In this document: one piece after another, positions 15,640 to 21,324 of the stretch | Layout: each line of letters starts with the position of its first letter | How positions within the stretch are numbered: position 1 is the stretch's first letter | Assembly (NCBI GenBank): GCA_040905465.1 | Contig: JBBDRK010000032.1 | Span: 12,236-43,196, forward strand | Length of the DNA stretch: 30,961 nucleotides | Direction of reading: 5' to 3' | Source: Trueperaceae bacterium | GTDB taxonomy: Bacteria > Deinococcota > Deinococci > Deinococcales > Trueperaceae | Made by a program: the position numbers and the translations under genes | Notes under the pieces: model-generated | Database searches by the model: none | Told to the model about the DNA's origin: nothing | What the model saw: only the letters and a program-made list of their open reading frames with translations

Positions 15640-16173
15640 TTAGTTCAGCGTGGCGCTCAACGTGACCTGCAGAAGCAGATCCTCGGAAGCAGCCATGGTA
15701 GACCTGGCGCCGACGCGGTAGCGCGTCGCTTCCGAGGACTGCTCGCGGAGCGTGCCATCGTTGCGGTAGTAGCCCGAATCCGAGCCGCTGAGGGCGCTTA
15801 CGTCGGCGCCCAGGTTCGATTCGAAGTCGTTGTCGTCACTGGTGCCCGCCACCCGCCAGGCGAGCAGGTAGTCGGGCTGAAAGCCGGAAAGGGCCAGGCT
15901 CAACGAGTTCGAGCTCAGGTCGGAATAGGAGACCCGGATGATGAAGTTGGTCCCGTAGGTGTAGAAGTTGTTGCTGAGCTGGCCGAGCGAGTAGCCGCTG
16001 CCGAAGTCCTCGGGGGTCGGCGAGTCGGTCATTATCTGCACGCTGACGGAGGGCTGGGCGAGACCGACGGCGCAACTCAGCAGGAGGAGTATCAGCAGCG
16101 CCCGCCGGTACGGCGCTGGGGCGGGCCGCTTGCGACATTGGCTTCTCCACGAGAGTCGCGAGTTCTTGAGCAT
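15640..16173 (-). CDS. Secreted pilin-like subunit (minor), paralog of 16397-16984
   Basis: Signal peptide (RRALLILLLLSCAVGLA|Q); shares LxQLS..YTY..F..R..YS and VGA....ASxDL...VTLxATxN with the upstream gene; GAGGTAGG RBS. Confidence 0.75.
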   Translation of the reverse strand: MLKNSRLSWRSQCRKRPAPAPYRRALLILLLLSCAVGLAQPSVSVQIMTDSPTPEDFGSGYSLGQLSNNFYTYGTNFIIRVSYSDLSSNSLSLALSGFQPDYLLAWRVAGTSDDNDFESNLGADVSALSGSDSGYYRNDGTLREQSSEATRYRVGARSTMAASEDLLLQVTLSATLN

Positions 16174-16308
16174 CTCAGTCAGCCTACCTCAAGAGAGAGT
16201 CGCCTCGTTGGGACAGCCGCGTCGGGCGGCCGGGCTGGTGTGACGCGGTTGGGGCGGCCTTCCCGGGGCCGCGGGGTTGAGGGGCCGGGCCCGAGCGCCG
16301 TAGGGACC

Positions 16309-16355
16309 AACAGTTGGGGCACGCGAAGCGAAGTGCCTCGCGTGCCCCAACTGTT
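16309..16355 (-). terminator. Perfect 18-bp stem-loop after the major subunit gene (terminator or mRNA stabiliser)
   Basis: AACAGTTGGGGCACGCGA (16309-16326) and TCGCGTGCCCCAACTGTT (16338-16355) around an 11-nt loop. Confidence 0.8.
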
Positions 16356-16396
16356 AGAGCAGGACAGGTTCCAGTGAACCCGGGGAAGAGCGGTCG

Positions 16397-16984
16397 TTAG
16401 TTGACGGTCGCGGTGAGGGTGACCGTGGTTTGGGTGAGGTCGGCGGAAGCGGACGCCTTGGCCTGGGCGCCGACCTCGAAGAAGGTGAATTCAGTGGTAG
16501 TCGTGGTCAATGCTTCGAAGGCCACTTGGGGCGGGCCGGCATCGGCATCGCCCTTCACCGAACCGGCGTTAGCGCCGGATGCGGCCGTACTACCGAGTGC
16601 CGTGGCCGTGGTACCGAGGACGACCGGAGCGGTCTTTACAGCAGAAGCGGTGGCGGAGAACGCCAGGAAGCGGTAGGCCACGTCGTAGTCGGCGTCGACG
16701 GCGTCGATCTTGATGTCCAGGCTGAGAGTGCTGCTGGCGGCAACGTTGCTGTAGTCGATCCTGACCGTGAAGGGGTCGCTGTAGGTGTACGCCGACGTGC
16801 TGAGCTGGCGCAGGTCTATCGCCTTCTGTAGGGCCGTCAGATCGGAGCCGGCTTCGTTCTGCAGGGTGACGGTGACCGTGTTGGACGGCATCTGTCCGTC
16901 CAGCGTGAGGCTGTCGCTCTGGGCGAAGCTTGCGGCGATCAGCGCGATCAGCACGGTAGTGCCTAGTATCTTGACGATCTTCAT
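16397..16984 (-). CDS. Secreted pilin-like subunit (probable major fimbrial subunit)
   Basis: AAGGAG RBS; Sec signal MKIVK...AASFA|Q; Ala/Thr/Ser-rich and beta-rich; alternating C-terminal strand TTVTLTATVN. Confidence 0.8.
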   Translation of the reverse strand: MKIVKILGTTVLIALIAASFAQSDSLTLDGQMPSNTVTVTLQNEAGSDLTALQKAIDLRQLSTSAYTYSDPFTVRIDYSNVAASSTLSLDIKIDAVDADYDVAYRFLAFSATASAVKTAPVVLGTTATALGSTAASGANAGSVKGDADAGPPQVAFEALTTTTTEFTFFEVGAQAKASASADLTQTTVTLTATVN

Positions 16985-17107
16985 GTGGTTCTCCTTGGAT
17001 CCTGAATTCGCCCGATCGGGCGCTTATGAGTACAGCCCGGCCAGAGATGCCGGTCCTGGCTGGGCGCTTGACTCGTTCGAGGGAAAGGATGAACACGGAA
17101 GATCATC

Positions 17108-17181
17108 CCTCGGCCGGTTGCGCTTCAAGCTCCATCCACCCCAAGCGCCCATGTGCAGGGTGGACCTCGTCGCTTCCGAGG
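17108..17181 (-). promoter_or_regulatory. Cyclic di-GMP-II riboswitch aptamer
   Basis: CCUCGGAAGCGACGAGGUCCACCCUGCACAUGGGCGCUUGGGGUGGAUGGAGCUUGAAGCGCAACCGGCCGAGG: P1 CCUCGG/CCGAGG, conserved GGAA, kink-turn GA/GA, P3 GUCCACCCU/GGGGUGGAU, pseudoknot GCGCUU/AAGCGC and conserved GCAACCGnCC. Confidence 0.9.
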
Positions 17182-17214
17182 CAGTTCGGCCTAACCTCAG
17201 GTCGAACCTCGTTG

Positions 17215-17220
17215 ATTCTA
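17215..17220 (-). promoter_or_regulatory. Candidate -10 box (TAGAAT) for the riboswitch-subunit transcript
   Basis: TAGAAT about 34 nt upstream of the aptamer, just downstream of the hairpin that follows the chaperone gene. Confidence 0.55.
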
Positions 17221-17250
17221 CAGGTGCGCTCTCATCAAGTCGTCAGATTC

Positions 17251-17283
17251 CCGACATCGATGCGCCCGGCATCGCGATGTCGG
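17251..17283 (-). terminator. Hairpin after the chaperone gene
   Basis: CCGACATCG/CGATGTCGG 9-bp arms plus inner ATGC/GCAT; no clear U tract. Confidence 0.5.
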
Positions 17284-17306
17284 CAGGTTCACACCGCTAC
17301 GGACAC

Positions 17307-18098
17307 CTAGCGCTCCGTCTCGATCGTTATCGTGGTGACCGCTTCGGCTCTCAGTCCTTCCTGGTACTCGAGAACCGCGAACACGCCGTACCGGCCCGCC
17401 GCCAGCTCGGCCGGCAGGGCCACCGGGAAGTCGATGGTGAGCCCGGGAAGCGCCACCCCCTGTTTCTCGATGGTCTCGCTGGCGCCGTCGCTGCCGTCGA
17501 GCGACAGGGTGAGAGTGAAACGCTGATAGCCGTTCCCCGAGTTGCGGATCGTGACCACGACTCCGGCGCCATCGTCGACACTGATTGAGGACAGATTCTC
17601 GATGCCCAACTCGTGCTCGGCCACTCCCTCTATCTCGACGGCCGTCACCATCGCGTAGCGGATGTTGAACATCAGCGCGTTACCCTGCTCGGTATCGGCC
17701 GAGGGCGGAACCTCGACCCCGATGACCCCCCAGTAACCCCCCTCGGGTTCGTCGGGGACGGTGACCGACATCGGAACTTCGGCCGTTTCGCCCGGCTCCA
17801 GGACGAACTCCAGTCGCTCCAGCTCGGCGATCTGAAAGAGGCTCTGGGGCAGGCTCGTGGCCGGAATGTGCTGGAGGGATCCGTTGGATAGTTGGGCGTA
17901 GTCGTTGAAGAAGATCCTCGCCTCGGCCCGGCTGTCGCCGCGGTTGACGATCGTGTAACGAAGAACCCGAGACTCGCCGGGAGCCAGCGACACCTGGCGC
18001 GGCCCGTTGATGTTGACCTGGGCGAGAGCGCTACCCGCTTGAGCTGCGATCATCGCTACGAGAATCGCAGCGGAGAACTTGAGAAGTCCGAATTTCAC
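17307..18098 (-). CDS. Periplasmic pilus chaperone-like protein (PapD/EcpB/DUF916-like, two Ig-like domains)
   Basis: Signal peptide (ALA|Q); LAPGESR..YTIVN, FVLEPGETAEV...VP, GYWGVIGVE and second domain VTIRNSGN...ALPG...GRY; GAGGAGG RBS. Confidence 0.75.
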   Translation of the reverse strand: MKFGLLKFSAAILVAMIAAQAGSALAQVNINGPRQVSLAPGESRVLRYTIVNRGDSRAEARIFFNDYAQLSNGSLQHIPATSLPQSLFQIAELERLEFVLEPGETAEVPMSVTVPDEPEGGYWGVIGVEVPPSADTEQGNALMFNIRYAMVTAVEIEGVAEHELGIENLSSISVDDGAGVVVTIRNSGNGYQRFTLTLSLDGSDGASETIEKQGVALPGLTIDFPVALPAELAAGRYGVFAVLEYQEGLRAEAVTTITIETER

Positions 18099-18111: not shown

Positions 18112-21100
18112 CTATCGTGGCGGTGCCGGAAGCGGCACGTTGTAACCGGGGATGAGCGGGATCGGAGCGTAGCGATCCACCTCGAACGACACTATCCGCC
18201 GTTCCACCAACCCGTCGGTGAAGGTAACCTCTATCGGCACGTCGACCCGCTCTGCTGCGTCGAGGGGTGATATCGACAGCACCCACAGAAGCTGCCTGCC
18301 CTCCACCTGCCGCTCCCGCGAGCTCTGCAGGTGGCGCAAGTTGGTGATCCGTATGCTGGAGATCTCCTTGGTCGATGTGACGTAGACGGCGAGGGTGATG
18401 CCCGGCGGGACGGTGGCGGACGTGGCGCGGAAAGAGAGCAGCTCGTCGGACCCGGGCAGCGATACGAGGTACTTGGGATCAACCGGGTTTGGCTGAAGGG
18501 GCCGGCCGCGCTCGTCGATCGCTTCTGGCTCCCCGGGCTCCGGCCGGGTCTCGACCGGCCGATCCTGGGCCTCGCCGGCCGAGCTGGCTGGCTCCTCCAC
18601 CGGCCCGAGTTCGGCCGTGGCCACCTTGGTTTCAGCCGCTGGCGCCGGTTCGCCGGTAACGATGGCCTGCACCGTTCGCTGCGCTACCTGCCCCTCCTCG
18701 AACTCGATCGTCACCTCCAGGTTCAATGCGCCGGCGGGGACCGGTGGGACGGGAACCTCCAGGGTCCACGTCCCGCTCGCGCCGTCCGGCCTTTCATGCA
18801 CCGTGCTGGCGCCCGCCGCGCTGATCCTCACCCGCGCGATCGGCGCCGGCGAGGTCACGACGAGCCTGATGGGTTGGTCTCGGCCGGTCAGTAACGAGGC
18901 CAACTCCAGCCTGACTGGGGGCGTAATGGCGCTGGGATCGAGGACGGTCCGCCTGGGCGCCGGTACCGTGAGAAGCAGCTCCTCGTCCTCCTGCCCGAGG
19001 TCCACGGTCAAACGCTCCCGTTCGCCGGACACGCCAACGGTGTACTCGCCGGCGGGCAGTCCGGTCATCCGGACCGAACCGAGCGGCAGCGAAGCGCTCG
19101 CCCAGCGCGACACCGGACCCTGCACCAGCACCCTGACGTCGCGGGCCCGGCCGCTGTCCCTGAGTTCACCGCTATCCCGGTCCCGGTAGCGAACGACGAT
19201 ATCCAGTGCGGATGTCGGAACGGCGGCCAGGGTGACGTCGCCGCCCGGCTGGACGAGAATCGGCTGGTCGGCAACGAACGTGTCGGGCGGCAGGCTCGCC
19301 TCGTCGACCCGTACCTCGCACTCTCCAGGTCTGCCCCGCAACGTGGCGCTGCCGGTGCTGTCGGTCGATTCCGGCTGACCGCACCCCAGCAGGCGGACGT
19401 TGGGCAGCCCGCGGCGCCCTCCCGCGCCTTCGAACTCCACCTGAACCCGCCTTTCGGTGGGGTCGGGACCGTCCAGAAAGGAGGCCAGGGCACGGGAGGT
19501 CGGGATGAAGGTGCTGTAGGAGACACCGAGCCCTACCGCCAGGCCGCCCTCACCACGGATCGGGGCCTCGAGCCCGAGCTTGGCGCTGAAGCCGCCGTGC
19601 GCGGAGTAGGCCGCGCTCACTCGTCCGCTGAGCGAAGCGTCGGCCAACAGGTCCGGGGCTTCTAGACCCAGGCCGGCGGTCAGGGTGCCGGAAGGCAGGA
19701 GCGCGGTGTAGTCGGCGCTAGCGCCAGCCTCCAGGGTCCCCGCGTCGGTCCAGCGCCCGGCCAGGTCGAGCATCACCGGGCCAACGGGAAGCGAGGCGCC
19801 GGCGTGGACTACCGCGGTGCCGGCGCCCAGCAACGGCAATTCACCGGCGAGCCGGAATGACGCCGATCCCACGGCGAACTGCTGATCCGCGTTGAGCAGC
19901 AGACTTTGCGGCGCGGCTCTCACGCCGAATCCGAATCCGCCTGCGCTTGCCCGCAGTGCGGCGTTCGAGAAAGTCCAGTCGTCCAGCGCGGCGCGAAGCG
20001 AGAACGCAAGTGGTCCCAGGCCGGGTAGTCGGGCCTTGTATCTGGAACTGCCCGACACTCTCGTGCCACCCTCCAGCAGCTCGGCAGCCACCTCGAGTCC
20101 GAACGAGCTGGTGGCGTACTGCGCCCTGCCACGCCAGCGAACGTTCTCCGCGCTGGCGAATCTGAGGGAGGCGTGAAACGGGGCCAATCCCGCGCTGACC
20201 TCGGCGGTCACCTCGTCGCCGGCGATATTCAACGCCGCTTGCGAGCGGAGCCGGGGACCCTCGAACACCACTCCGAAGCGAGGCGATTCGTCGGCGCGCT
20301 CCAACGGTATCGCGGCTCCGATAACGATGTCCCCGAGGAACGGCAGTCGCGTGAAGCGCTGGGACAGGTACAAGCCTCTACCGACGTTGCCGGCCGGGCT
20401 CCCGACGCTGCGGTCGGTGAGTTCCAGGCTCGAGTTGCGATAGCGCAGCAACAGCCGGGGTTCGGGAAGTTCGGAGAAGCCGATTCCTCGCGCGCTCAGC
20501 TCCAGGTAGGTGTTGCGACTCAGGCTTCCCACGAACGACACCGAGAACGGTTTCTCAGGCAGTGATAGTGGCTGCCCGAGCGTCGCGCTCGCGTCCGCGG
20601 CAACGGTTGCCAGTAGGCCGTACCCGGCCCGGCGGCCGGTGCCCGCGGCGGTGAGGTAGATCGTCTTTCGGACGGTATCGGCGCCGCCCTCGAGGGTAAC
20701 AGCCAGGGTGCGGTTACCGTTTGTCAGCGCCGGAAGCTCCACGTGAATGGTCGCCGCGCTTCCAGGGGCAACGGTGGTTGCCGGCGCCTTGGCCGCGACG
20801 CCGGAGAACGAGAGCTCGACCCGTCCAGGGGTATTGCCGCTGTTTCTCACCACCAGCGGAACCAGCGTGGAGCGGTCCCGGAACGCCAGCACCCTCTCGG
20901 GAGCCTCCAGTTCGAAGGCCACCAGCCTGGGAAGCTCTACCGTCAGCGAAACCGGGTACGGCTCATCCTCGCCCTCCACCAGGAAGTGAAGCGTCAGCTC
21001 GGTCAGGCGGCCTAGCTGGGCGTTACTGCTGAGCATCACCGGCAGGAGCGGGGCGGCGGAAGGGGAGAGCACCCGCGGGAAGGTGAGCGTGAGAGCTTGT

Positions 21101-21324
21101 GGAAGATCGGCACGCACTCGTCCGTCACCGGAGTCCCAGCCCTGGAACTCGACGCGCAACTCGGCCGCCTCGAAGCGCTCCCCAAGCGCCAGCACGGCCC
21201 GCGCCCGACCGTTCTCGGCCATCACGGTTGTGGCTGACTGCTGTGCCGAGGCGATTCCTGACAACAAAAGCGCGAGCAGAGCCGCAGCCAGGCGCCGTCG
21301 GGCCCTGCCCGAGTACGAGCGCAA
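18112..21324 (-). CDS. Large exported beta-rich protein, atypical usher-like outer-membrane protein
   Basis: Signal peptide (ASA|QQ); N-terminal Ig-like domain (VRNSGN); long amphipathic beta-strand region; SdrD-B/carboxypeptidase-regulatory-like motifs (GLPNV...TDSTG, GLPAGEYTV); duplicated C-terminal domain; AAGGTG RBS before TTG. Confidence 0.65.
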   Translation of the reverse strand: MRSYSGRARRRLAAALLALLLSGIASAQQSATTVMAENGRARAVLALGERFEAAELRVEFQGWDSGDGRVRADLPQALTLTFPRVLSPSAAPLLPVMLSSNAQLGRLTELTLHFLVEGEDEPYPVSLTVELPRLVAFELEAPERVLAFRDRSTLVPLVVRNSGNTPGRVELSFSGVAAKAPATTVAPGSAATIHVELPALTNGNRTLAVTLEGGADTVRKTIYLTAAGTGRRAGYGLLATVAADASATLGQPLSLPEKPFSVSFVGSLSRNTYLELSARGIGFSELPEPRLLLRYRNSSLELTDRSVGSPAGNVGRGLYLSQRFTRLPFLGDIVIGAAIPLERADESPRFGVVFEGPRLRSQAALNIAGDEVTAEVSAGLAPFHASLRFASAENVRWRGRAQYATSSFGLEVAAELLEGGTRVSGSSRYKARLPGLGPLAFSLRAALDDWTFSNAALRASAGGFGFGVRAAPQSLLLNADQQFAVGSASFRLAGELPLLGAGTAVVHAGASLPVGPVMLDLAGRWTDAGTLEAGASADYTALLPSGTLTAGLGLEAPDLLADASLSGRVSAAYSAHGGFSAKLGLEAPIRGEGGLAVGLGVSYSTFIPTSRALASFLDGPDPTERRVQVEFEGAGGRRGLPNVRLLGCGQPESTDSTGSATLRGRPGECEVRVDEASLPPDTFVADQPILVQPGGDVTLAAVPTSALDIVVRYRDRDSGELRDSGRARDVRVLVQGPVSRWASASLPLGSVRMTGLPAGEYTVGVSGERERLTVDLGQEDEELLLTVPAPRRTVLDPSAITPPVRLELASLLTGRDQPIRLVVTSPAPIARVRISAAGASTVHERPDGASGTWTLEVPVPPVPAGALNLEVTIEFEEGQVAQRTVQAIVTGEPAPAAETKVATAELGPVEEPASSAGEAQDRPVETRPEPGEPEAIDERGRPLQPNPVDPKYLVSLPGSDELLSFRATSATVPPGITLAVYVTSTKEISSIRITNLRHLQSSRERQVEGRQLLWVLSISPLDAAERVDVPIEVTFTDGLVERRIVSFEVDRYAPIPLIPGYNVPLPAPPR

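Follow-up and report, generated by a model that had tools for sequence, protein, structure and literature searches.

Which way does a cyclic di-GMP (c-di-GMP) riboswitch turn its genes when it sits inside a gene cluster, directly ahead of the gene for a small secreted protein? This question is raised by a stretch of 30,961 nucleotides (nt) from a Trueperaceae bacterium of the Deinococcota (GenBank assembly GCA_040905465.1, contig JBBDRK010000032.1, positions 12,236 to 43,196 of the forward strand), the whole of which is called the window here. A preliminary description, made from the letters alone, had placed a class-II c-di-GMP riboswitch in it. The analysis presented below shows that the aptamer belongs to a known class, and that its expression platform, which joins a decoy of the aptamer pseudoknot to a relay of strands around the Shine-Dalgarno (SD) sequence and is predicted to work as an OFF switch, is new and recurrent in the family. 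All riboswitch features are read on the minus strand, in window coordinates.

The aptamer and its pseudoknot decoy

When the whole window was searched with the covariance models of all 4227 Rfam families (cmscan), a single match reached the gathering threshold: RF01786, at 17186-17103 on the minus strand, spanning positions 1-84 of the 84 of the model with 66.2 bits (cut-off 53.5) and an E value of 6.5e-13. The assignment to class II is thereby borne out, 12.7 bits above the cut-off, and all the motifs named in the preliminary description lie where it had placed them. The aptamer is made up as follows.

17103..17186, minus strand: c-di-GMP-II aptamer (RF01786)
17181-17176 with 17113-17108, minus strand: helix P1, CCUCGG with CCGAGG
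17174-17172 with 17130-17128, minus strand: helix P2
17165-17158 with 17141-17134, minus strand: helix P3
17148-17143 with 17125-17120, minus strand: pseudoknot, GCGCUU with AAGCGC, complementary at 6 of 6 positions
17120-17114, minus strand: CAACCGG

Eighteen standard pairs fit the Rfam consensus structure (six contiguous and one outer in P1, three in P2, eight in P3), and the conserved unpaired GGAAGC, GGAGC and GCAACCGG are found in the window aptamer. A kink-turn is a feature of the crystal structure of the class-II c-di-GMP riboswitch. The window aptamer has CGA in place of UGA, as do four others in an alignment of 49 aptamers with their flanks from 26 genomes, which served as the first comparison set. 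P1 and P3 covary in 11 relatives, with two-sided changes in 8 of 31 predicted pairs, and the pseudoknot 5-mers are complementary (5/5) in 47 of the 48 parsed lineage aptamers, in four pair combinations. Judged by its sequence, the riboswitch is genuine and a member of its known class, with the binding of c-di-GMP itself predicted.

The aptamer might instead have decayed, or have come to bind another ligand, which would leave the leader as a constitutive structured 5′ untranslated region (UTR). Its positions 17127-17125 read UGA where 46 of the 49 aligned aptamers have AGU; moreover, a paralogous cluster in the same genome has only a sub-threshold aptamer (39.9 bits, pseudoknot complementary at 3 of 5 positions), and a third paralogous cluster lacks any aptamer. 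Decay is, however, at odds with a score 12.7 bits over the cut-off, with P1, P2, P3 and the 6-bp pseudoknot all being intact (the A of the UGA lengthens the pseudoknot to 6 bp), and with a platform complementary to P1 and to the loop, which is sensible only if the aptamer still switches. We regard a decayed or repurposed aptamer as quite unlikely.

The aptamer class is widespread in the family. RF01786 was found in 115 of 128 family genomes. A single genome has as many as 22 matches, and the total exceeds 550 (150 listed and 407 counted further); among the control genomes only Deinococcus radiodurans was positive. Doublets and triplets are many, and their second aptamer often has another loop and pseudoknot pair (GCAUC with GAUGC). 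Of the five RF01786 matches in the source genome itself (3.53 Mb in 81 contigs), four lie over the cut-off; the genome also has 13 GGDEF matches, which indicates that c-di-GMP is made there. Published statements are given here and below as they stand in the accessible parts of the cited sources. Class-II riboswitches are listed as long 5′ UTRs in D. deserti (PMC4007540), and a literature search for a Deinococcus c-di-GMP regulon found only this listing. No description of a Deinococcus class-II platform or of a decoy pseudoknot was found in the literature outside subscription journals and supplements.

Downstream of the aptamer, a 10-mer had been proposed to match the pseudoknot loop and to recur in part near the ribosome-binding site. 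Both copies are present.

17061..17070, minus strand: decoy element CAAGCGCCCA, pairing with the loop at 17151-17142
17009..17025, minus strand: second copy AAGCGCCC (17025-17018) and the hairpin CGCCC-GAUC-GGGCG (17022-17009)

The decoy CAAGCGCCCA and the loop UGGGCGCUUG (17151-17142) are exact reverse complements over 10 of 10 positions. Their duplex was put at −18.4 kcal/mol in one calculation and at −21.0 kcal/mol in another; the latter value was not matched when the downstream 190 nt were shuffled 30 times with dinucleotides preserved. The 3′ arm of the 17022-17009 hairpin resembles the aptamer loop; this hairpin was found in the unconstrained, the holo (aptamer enforced) and the P1-forbidden folds, and the same layout of an element plus GGGCG lies 3′ of the aptamers in two other loci (L023 and L026).

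When each aptamer position of the comparison set was scanned as 7-mers against its own downstream 185 nt, a single peak appeared, at the loop GGGCGCU(U). Counts at the loop were 13-31, compared with 1-8 for the upstream flank and 7-19 after the downstream regions had been swapped among aptamers, a control that is high because the loop is nearly invariant. Exact loop complements of at least 8 nt lie downstream of 8 of the 49 aptamers, upstream of none, and on the reverse complement in 6 of 49, the last because tandem aptamers repeat the loop in the sense orientation. Allowing for wobble pairs, the 8-mer [AG][AG]G[CT]GCCC occurs 11-120 nt downstream of 15 of the 41 aptamers with a GGGCGC[CU][UA] loop (14 of 40 without the window), and on the same 41 the controls gave 1 for the upstream flank, 4 for the reverse complement of the downstream region and 4 for that of the upstream region.

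Since the motif had been defined after this first set was seen, the count was repeated on 30 new loci; five repeats were dropped, and 24 of the remaining 25 have a GGGCGC[CU][UA] loop. The 8-mer lies downstream in 8 of these 24, upstream in 2 and on the reverse complement in none. Across both sets, 22 of 64 other aptamers from related genomes thus have a loop-complementary element 11-120 nt downstream, compared with a background of 5.6% of all 110-nt windows in the same loci. The binomial P values against this background (1.7e-8 for the first set, 3.1e-5 for the second) are overstated because the genomes are kin. In one locus (L012) the loop reads GGGCGCCUG and the element CAGGCGCCC, which is a compensating change. 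These exact-match and motif counts are clearer than the duplex energies of the loop with its flanks, whose means (downstream −16.3, upstream −14.8, reverse complement −15.1, shuffles −15.3) show a small shift in GC-rich DNA. The anti-pseudoknot 10-mer of the preliminary description is real and has counterparts in related genomes (22 of 64, with about 6% expected), and the window holds one instance of this recurrent platform element.

Elements of the AAGCGCCC type could also be read as the C-rich arm of an SD-sequestering hairpin that never pairs with the loop, their likeness to the pseudoknot strand being incidental. Indeed, in 11 element-type leaders folded together with RNAalifold, the CCC of the element forms pairs with the GGG that precedes the start codon (in 11, 10 and 10 of the 11), and the minimum free energy (MFE) fold of the window pairs GCCC (17065-17062) with GGGC (17038-17035). 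Loop-matching AAGCG or GAGCG letters, however, would be superfluous in a bare run of C; enrichment of the strict 8-mer is confined to the downstream side and the sense orientation (15/41 versus 1/41 and 4/41); and the window element matches its loop over all ten positions. Moreover, in eight tandem arrangements the element precedes a second aptamer and not a start codon. A C-rich arm with a chance resemblance is in our estimate very improbable.

The predicted output helix and direction of the switch

The preliminary description had proposed that several anti-aptamer helices form the switch. A platform of alternative pairings does exist; the helix that would deliver its output, 17107-17085 with 16996-16973, had been missed, and no direction had been given. 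The parts of the platform are listed here.

17085..17107, minus strand: anti-SD/anti-start strand, directly 3′ of P1 without a gap, paired with 16996-16973 in the MFE fold
16973..16996, minus strand: SD sequence AAGGAG (16996-16991), start codon AUG (16984-16982) and first codons, the 3′ strand of the sequestering helix
17084..17111, minus strand: hairpin of the predicted ligand-free (apo) state, GAGGGAUGA (17111-17103) with UCAUCCUUU (17092-17084), which ties up the 3′ strand of P1 and the core of the anti-SD strand
17078..17084, minus strand: UCCCUCG, alternative partner of CGAGGGA (17112-17106) by exact complementarity

In the mechanism that we propose, this platform of 120 nt would control the translation of the pilin-like gene starting at 16984, and probably of its downstream paralogue too. 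The relay would have three parts: the anti-SD/anti-start strand 17107-17085, able to bury 16996-16973; an anti-anti-SD strand, 17111-17103, made of the 3′ strand of P1 and the next five bases, which would fold back on 17092-17084; and the decoy of the 3′ pseudoknot strand, 17070-17061, which would pair with the P3 loop 17151-17142. Without c-di-GMP, the fold-back hairpin would displace P1 once 17084 has been made, the decoy would occupy the loop and keep the aptamer from binding its ligand, and the SD sequence would come out unpaired, with translation ON. With c-di-GMP bound to the intact aptamer, P1 and the native pseudoknot would be locked, and the anti-SD strand would be free to pair with the emerging SD sequence and start codon, with translation OFF. 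Ligand that arrives before the aptamer has been disrupted would be able to shift the balance.

The direction of the switch is read from the layout of these strands. P1 ends at 17108 and the anti-SD helix starts at 17107, so that the two abut, and the fold-back hairpin overlaps both; a closed P1 would hence favour burial of the SD sequence, which is why the device is read as an OFF switch. On these folding models, we give a translational OFF switch under c-di-GMP a little better than an even chance.

In the MFE folds of 17215-16975 and of 17208-16955 the output helix has 21 bp, interrupted as 10+3+3+5 pairs, and its duplex of −22.6 kcal/mol was not equalled by any of 1000 shuffles. Among 61876 windows on both strands of the 31-kb window, 28 reached this energy (best, −42.3 kcal/mol); they are taken to be mostly the region's own antisense, which gives the best value, and neighbours of the site. 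Accessibility of the SD sequence differs with the state that is enforced: the probability that AAGGAG is unpaired stays at 0.00-0.10 when nothing is constrained or the aptamer is enforced, and rises to 0.41-0.96 once the decoy helix is imposed. The best decoy-enforced fold combines the GAGGGAUGA:UCAUCCUUU hairpin, the decoy helix, the 5′ strand of P1 paired with 17169-17164 and an SD sequence left partly to largely unpaired. Relatives lend indirect support to the OFF reading. In a related locus (L001), the full-length MFE fold has the aptamer together with a long helix that buries the SD sequence, and in the 11 element-type leaders the CCC of the element meets the GGG ahead of the start codon, as described above.

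We infer an order of folding from transcripts of growing length, which were folded and read as mean pair probabilities. P1 stands at 0.81 for a transcript ending at 17105; extension to 17084 brings the fold-back hairpin to 0.94 and lowers P1 to 0.05. The decoy helix is at 0.55-1.00 with the 3′ end at 17061-17050, and P1 and the anti-SD:SD helix reach 0.98 only once 16973 has been transcribed. This order is unchanged for 5′ ends at 17191, 17208 and 17300. Because P3 and the decoy helix are mutually exclusive in nested folding, the pseudoknot helices were added by hand; with the same pseudoknot penalty omitted from both, the rough sums are −101.9 kcal/mol for the ON fold (P3 kept) and −102.7 kcal/mol for the OFF fold (native pseudoknot). 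As modelled, the platform is bistable, with two near-isoenergetic folds of which the ON fold comes first, as a switch would require.

A fold with P1 forbidden was also tried as a model of the apo state; the SD sequence was still buried in the window. In 14 leaders, accessibility in the 'apo' and 'holo' folds built in this way differed by at most 0.01, and the test was dropped as uninformative because nested folding cannot keep P3 with the decoy helix.

Capture of the 3′ strand of P1 by UCCCUCG, proposed in the preliminary description, stands as an exact complementarity, and UCCCUCGAA is also found 3′ of the aptamers in L001 and L002. As a step of the switch it is minor compared with the overlapping hairpin for most transcript lengths: with the 3′ end at 17078-17009 its mean pair probability is at most 0.14, while the hairpin has 0.86-0.93. 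The UCCCUCG helix is ahead, at 0.89 and 0.62, when the 3′ end is at 16996-16985, and the fold with this helix enforced has −96.5 kcal/mol.

Upstream of the aptamer lie two further features.

17215..17222, minus strand: promoter-like motif TGTAGAAT, a TAGAAT −10 box or one copy of a GTAAGA-type motif
17183..17208, minus strand: 5′ hairpin directly ahead of P1, present only with a transcription start site near 17208

A motif of the GTAAGA(A/G)T type occurs within 150 nt upstream of 15 of the 49 aptamers, with 0.019 expected per 150 nt in the own genome, and lies 30-100 nt upstream of the aptamers (loci L001-L035). Seven of the 15 motif stretches, read from the sequence, contain a direct repeat with an 11-nt period, and the proximal repeat begins about 15 nt ahead of a TAnnnT box. 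The motif has the look of an activator site common to c-di-GMP-riboswitch genes, or of an atypical −35 region in front of them, and since it recurs upstream of so many aptamers, the switch of the window may have its own promoter and head its own transcript. A scan of 16500-17800 for consensus sigma-70 promoters found none, and a search of RNA sequencing runs for this stretch gave no match. The 5′ hairpin appears in the unconstrained and in five of six constrained folds of 17208-16955, and is one pair shorter in the P1-forbidden fold. The 5′ CGAGG that had been proposed to capture the 5′ strand of P1 is in place at 17211-17207; its capture of P1 is weak, with a probability of 0.04-0.21, and is possible only if transcription begins upstream of CGAGG. 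A terminator between the gene for the 263-residue protein described below and the riboswitch was considered and set aside: the hairpin picked out by eye is outside the MFE fold, and the fold of 17310-17225 has a z score of −0.36 against shuffles.

Several observations weigh against an OFF switch built in this way. The OFF fold is the MFE even without ligand in the nested model (−99.9 kcal/mol, versus −95.2 with the decoy enforced), so that the switch depends on the order of folding and on roughly added pseudoknot terms. The ensemble of a transcript running from 17300 to 16955 reverts to the apo-type fold, which makes the balance between ON and OFF dependent on the flanks and the two states near in energy. 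In the aptamer, the UGA at 17127-17125 departs from the AGU of 46 of 49 aligned aptamers, and the window alone has U at the first position of this site. The decoy motif was set post hoc on the first set, and kinship among genomes inflates its binomial P values. The pairs between the element and the SD region are invariant across the 11 leaders and are uninformative either way on that helix. The platform of the one orthologous locus obtained (L072, see below) is a different stretch of 57 nt without a decoy, whose fold is no better than shuffles; there being no orthologous platform, the helices of the window are beyond a covariation test. Finally, all four class-II switches of Clostridioides difficile, the best-studied set, are ON switches (PMC6366702).

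This last point favours a reverse logic for the same aptamer, in which c-di-GMP would turn the genes ON, the apo fold being degraded or terminated by Rho and the holo fold opened in some other way. One of the four C. difficile switches stands before a major pilin gene, and adhesive fibres are commonly promoted by c-di-GMP (PMC6366702). The layout of the window, however, speaks for the opposite sign: the anti-SD strand abuts P1 without overlap, so that a closed P1 frees it to bury the SD sequence; its sole strong competitor uses the 3′ strand of P1; and no terminator was found in 16500-17800. Moreover, among 16 downstream proteins scanned, element-type switches precede secreted GH26 hydrolases at four loci and an S8 protease (subtilase) at one, where repression at high c-di-GMP is plausible. 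We hold ON logic to be improbable. The decoy-bearing loci ahead of the GH26 and S8 subtilase genes are L020, L022, L018, L023 and L026, and the enzymes could possibly be matrix-degrading ones under the control of c-di-GMP.

The main output could also lie in transcription or RNA stability, through Rho-dependent termination or the access of RNases to a C-rich leader, with the pairing of the SD sequence secondary. An untranslated leader is a usual target of Rho, the leader is C-rich at 17100-17030 and partly single-stranded in the apo fold, and the preliminary description too had raised stability. On the other side, the 21-bp helix takes in exactly the SD sequence, the start codon and the codons right after it, a placement that points to initiation, and effects of Rho or RNases would follow from translation being off, in the same direction. 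The preliminary description had also seen no U-tailed terminator, and this holds: no intrinsic terminator was found in 16500-17800, where 0.7 were expected in shuffles, which makes translational control, as it had suggested, the sensible reading. An output that lies chiefly in transcription or stability is unlikely, and translational OFF control remains the reading that we carry into the discussion of the genes.

The gene cluster and its relatives

The riboswitch lies within a cluster that reads, in minus-strand order, as the genes for proteins of 1070 and 263 amino acids (aa), the riboswitch, and the genes for proteins of 195 and 177 aa; the next genes are on the opposite strand.

18112..21324, minus strand: first gene of the cluster, 1070-aa secreted multi-domain protein
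17307..18098, minus strand: upstream gene, 263-aa secreted protein with two immunoglobulin (Ig) domains, PapD/WxLIP-like, putative chaperone
16397..16984, minus strand: regulated gene 1, 195-aa secreted protein with a predicted pilin-like Ig fold, orphan family
15640..16173, minus strand: probable regulated gene 2, 177-aa paralogue of the 195-aa protein
16307..16357, minus strand: perfect 23-bp hairpin, 40 nt past the stop codon of the 195-aa gene, without a U tract

The 195-aa protein has a signal peptide and belongs to no Pfam or NCBIfam family. A word-based search with it found only itself, and seven relatives were found among 1.84 billion representatives; the one named relative comes from Deinococcus sp. 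SM5_A1. The position of the gene start is consistent with these seven homologues. An AlphaFold2 model built on eight sequences has a mean predicted local distance difference test (pLDDT) score of 78. Its best structural matches are chaperone-usher pilins (CS17, Z 6.9; CfaB, 6.6; FimA, 6.0), at Z scores below 8, which may signify a common fold only, and a Foldseek search of the model against the PDB found none at E values up to 0.001. On the basis of this model, the protein probably has a pilin-like Ig fold. The 177-aa protein matches it with a BLASTP E value of 6e-06, and with a jackhmmer E value of 2e-51 after iteration.

The 263-aa protein bears a signal peptide and lacks a membrane helix at its C terminus. 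Its single-sequence model is poor (pLDDT 50.7); its predicted structure lies near ESM Atlas clusters named automatically as PapD-like or fimbrial chaperone (template modelling score 0.72-0.83), and its family profile matches EfmWxLIP1 (PDB 9i25_C) over nearly the full length at an E value of 5.6e-4. A predicted complex of the 263-aa and 195-aa proteins scored an ipSAE of 0.85, compared with 0.00 for the best of three controls; of 157 solved complexes 116 reach the mark used for this score, as do 2 of 215 mismatched pairs, counts that are only approximate here because our own alignments were used. Three runs share at least 82% of their contacts, and the pLDDT of the partner is at least 77. In the predicted complex, strand 143-151 of the 263-aa protein runs in register along the C-terminal strand of the subunit, 187-194. 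The model supports, and does not show, binding of the pilin-like protein by the 263-aa protein, and the score may be owed to likeness to solved chaperone-subunit complexes.

The 1070-aa protein has only a weak match to CarboxypepD_reg in Pfam, and no usher domain is recognised in it; its ESM neighbours contain CarboxypepD_reg, SpaA and SdrD_B domains, and it has no sequence match in the PDB below an E value of 0.1. None of usher PF00577, PapD_N and PapD_C was matched in Pfam at E values up to 0.01 by the 1070-, 263-, 195- or 177-aa proteins, and no NCBIfam match over the cut-off was found in the proteins of the cluster. WxL systems of the Elr type are recognised by a chaperone with paired DUF916 (PF06030) and DUF3324 (PF11797) domains beside a pilin with a WxL domain; here PF06030 gave an E value of 0.0043 and 17.5 bits, under its cut-off of 27.3, and Pfam found no WxL domain in the 195-aa or 177-aa proteins.

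The hairpin between the two subunit genes is itself unusually stable: the fold of 16400-16290 has −62.1 kcal/mol (z −7.9), and none of 200 shuffles was as good. The terminator scan did not pick it up. It may be an attenuator or a stabiliser between both subunit genes, and could set their ratio.

The arrangement is kept in the only orthologous locus obtained, L072 of Deinococcus sp. SM5_A1, where a large protein (33% identical, E 9e-64) and a chaperone-like protein (37%, E 3e-50) are followed by an aptamer of 55.5 bits and then by the subunit gene; the placement of the aptamer between the chaperone-like and subunit genes is thus conserved. When 61 genomes were searched at the DNA level, those other than the own genome gave matches to the aptamer core alone; a profile of the 195-aa family matched 2 of 128 genomes (the own genome and one marginal match), and a metagenome scan for an orthologous platform found nothing. 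A contig of a related strain (run X2) differs from the window at 26 places over 16780-17091; 24 of these are listed, and 23 of them fall in the 205-nt open reading frame part and one (17047) in the 107-nt leader part, which lends mild support to the platform. From the same run, a soil-metagenome contig joins an aptamer-like stretch (7 differences in 76 nt) to the SD region and skips the 107-nt platform (window 16998/17106). It may represent a relative with a minimal platform, an interpretation in which our confidence is low given a likeness threshold of 80 and a shorter side of 31 nt.

Two paralogous clusters lie in the same genome (G000:C49:57857-62589, with L005 and L066, and G000:C49:186182-181909, with L067), each with one or more small secreted proteins, a chaperone-like protein and a protein of 883-917 aa. 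One is headed by the sub-threshold aptamer mentioned above, with the subunit genes first and the aptamer ahead of them; the other has no aptamer. By jackhmmer, no link was found across the three clusters for either the small or the large proteins. The constant feature in the placement of the riboswitch is that it lies directly before subunit genes. At another locus (L012:1690-1777, plus strand), an aptamer of the c-di-GMP-II-GAG variant class (RF03169, 64.2 bits) stands back to back with a canonical doublet; after it come the genes for a small secreted protein and for a homologue of the 263-aa protein.

Known systems and meaning for the family

The TPP (thiamine pyrophosphate) riboswitch of Escherichia coli thiM is a translational OFF switch with a relay of anti-SD and anti-anti-SD strands. 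The window resembles it in that the 3′ strand of P1 would serve as the anti-anti-SD and a closed P1 would release the anti-SD strand to the SD sequence; it differs in aptamer and ligand, and in a predicted second lock, the decoy on the pseudoknot loop. Ties between gene control and the forming of a ligand-stabilised pseudoknot are shared with the ZTP, fluoride, preQ1-II and SAM-II riboswitches, in which either the 3′ strand of the pseudoknot is shared with, or contested by, the platform, or the pseudoknot encloses the SD sequence. Unlike these, the window has, further downstream, a second 3′ strand set apart from the first and extended by CCC, which would compete for the loop strand. Translation is turned OFF by preQ1-II, preQ1-III, SAM-II and SAM-V (PMC7583470).

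Within its own class, the closest parallel is Cdi-2-4 of C. difficile, which has the same aptamer class and likewise lies directly ahead of a major fibre-subunit gene, pilA1; other assembly genes are there under separate control, and Cdi-2-4 acts on transcription termination (PMC6366702). Another class-II switch of C. difficile controls a group I ribozyme (PMC9481103), and the switches of this organism turn genes on via termination or splicing (PMC6366702, PMC9481103). In contrast with these ON switches, the window has an SD-sequestering helix and a pseudoknot decoy, is predicted to turn OFF, and yielded no terminator. Tandem c-di-GMP-II riboswitches are described as 59 doublets and 9 triplets, mostly from Paraclostridium (PMC9481103); the window riboswitch is a singlet, whereas relatives of its genome carry many doublets and triplets. 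In these relatives the decoy often lies between both aptamers of a doublet, an arrangement of which the accessible text of PMC9481103 makes no mention.

Proteins of the WxLIP type are chaperones of donor-strand-exchange pili, and the WxL system, to which the Elr pilus of Enterococcus belongs, is confined to Bacillota, according to a preprint (bioRxiv 10.64898/2026.10.17.759780). The cluster of the window is like chaperone-usher and WxL (Elr) fibres in joining a small secreted subunit, with a predicted pilin-like Ig fold, to a neighbouring two-Ig-domain protein related to WxLIP1. It is unlike them in that an usher domain, a WxL domain and a sortase signal were not recognised in the window proteins.

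Taken jointly, these lines may be drawn into one picture, which as a whole we put forward tentatively and consider possible rather than probable. An aptamer present in 115 of 128 genomes would be held shut, while free of ligand, by a downstream decoy of its own pseudoknot strand that, once released, helps to bury the ribosome-binding site. The device in the window would gate the subunit genes of a fibre built by donor-strand exchange in a diderm that is not a member of Bacillota. Its assembly would rely on a relative of the WxLIP chaperones of Gram-positive bacteria, acting in the periplasm of a system that has no recognisable usher.

If true, a family-wide OFF platform with a loop decoy would mean that the same aptamer can be wired either way, in a compact design that is easily mutated for testing. 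It would also mark a c-di-GMP regulon in Deinococcus-like bacteria that takes in pilin-like fibres, GH26 hydrolases, a subtilase and lipoproteins. The gene context, for its part, suggests that WxL-related fibres assembled by chaperone-guided donor-strand exchange extend beyond Bacillota.

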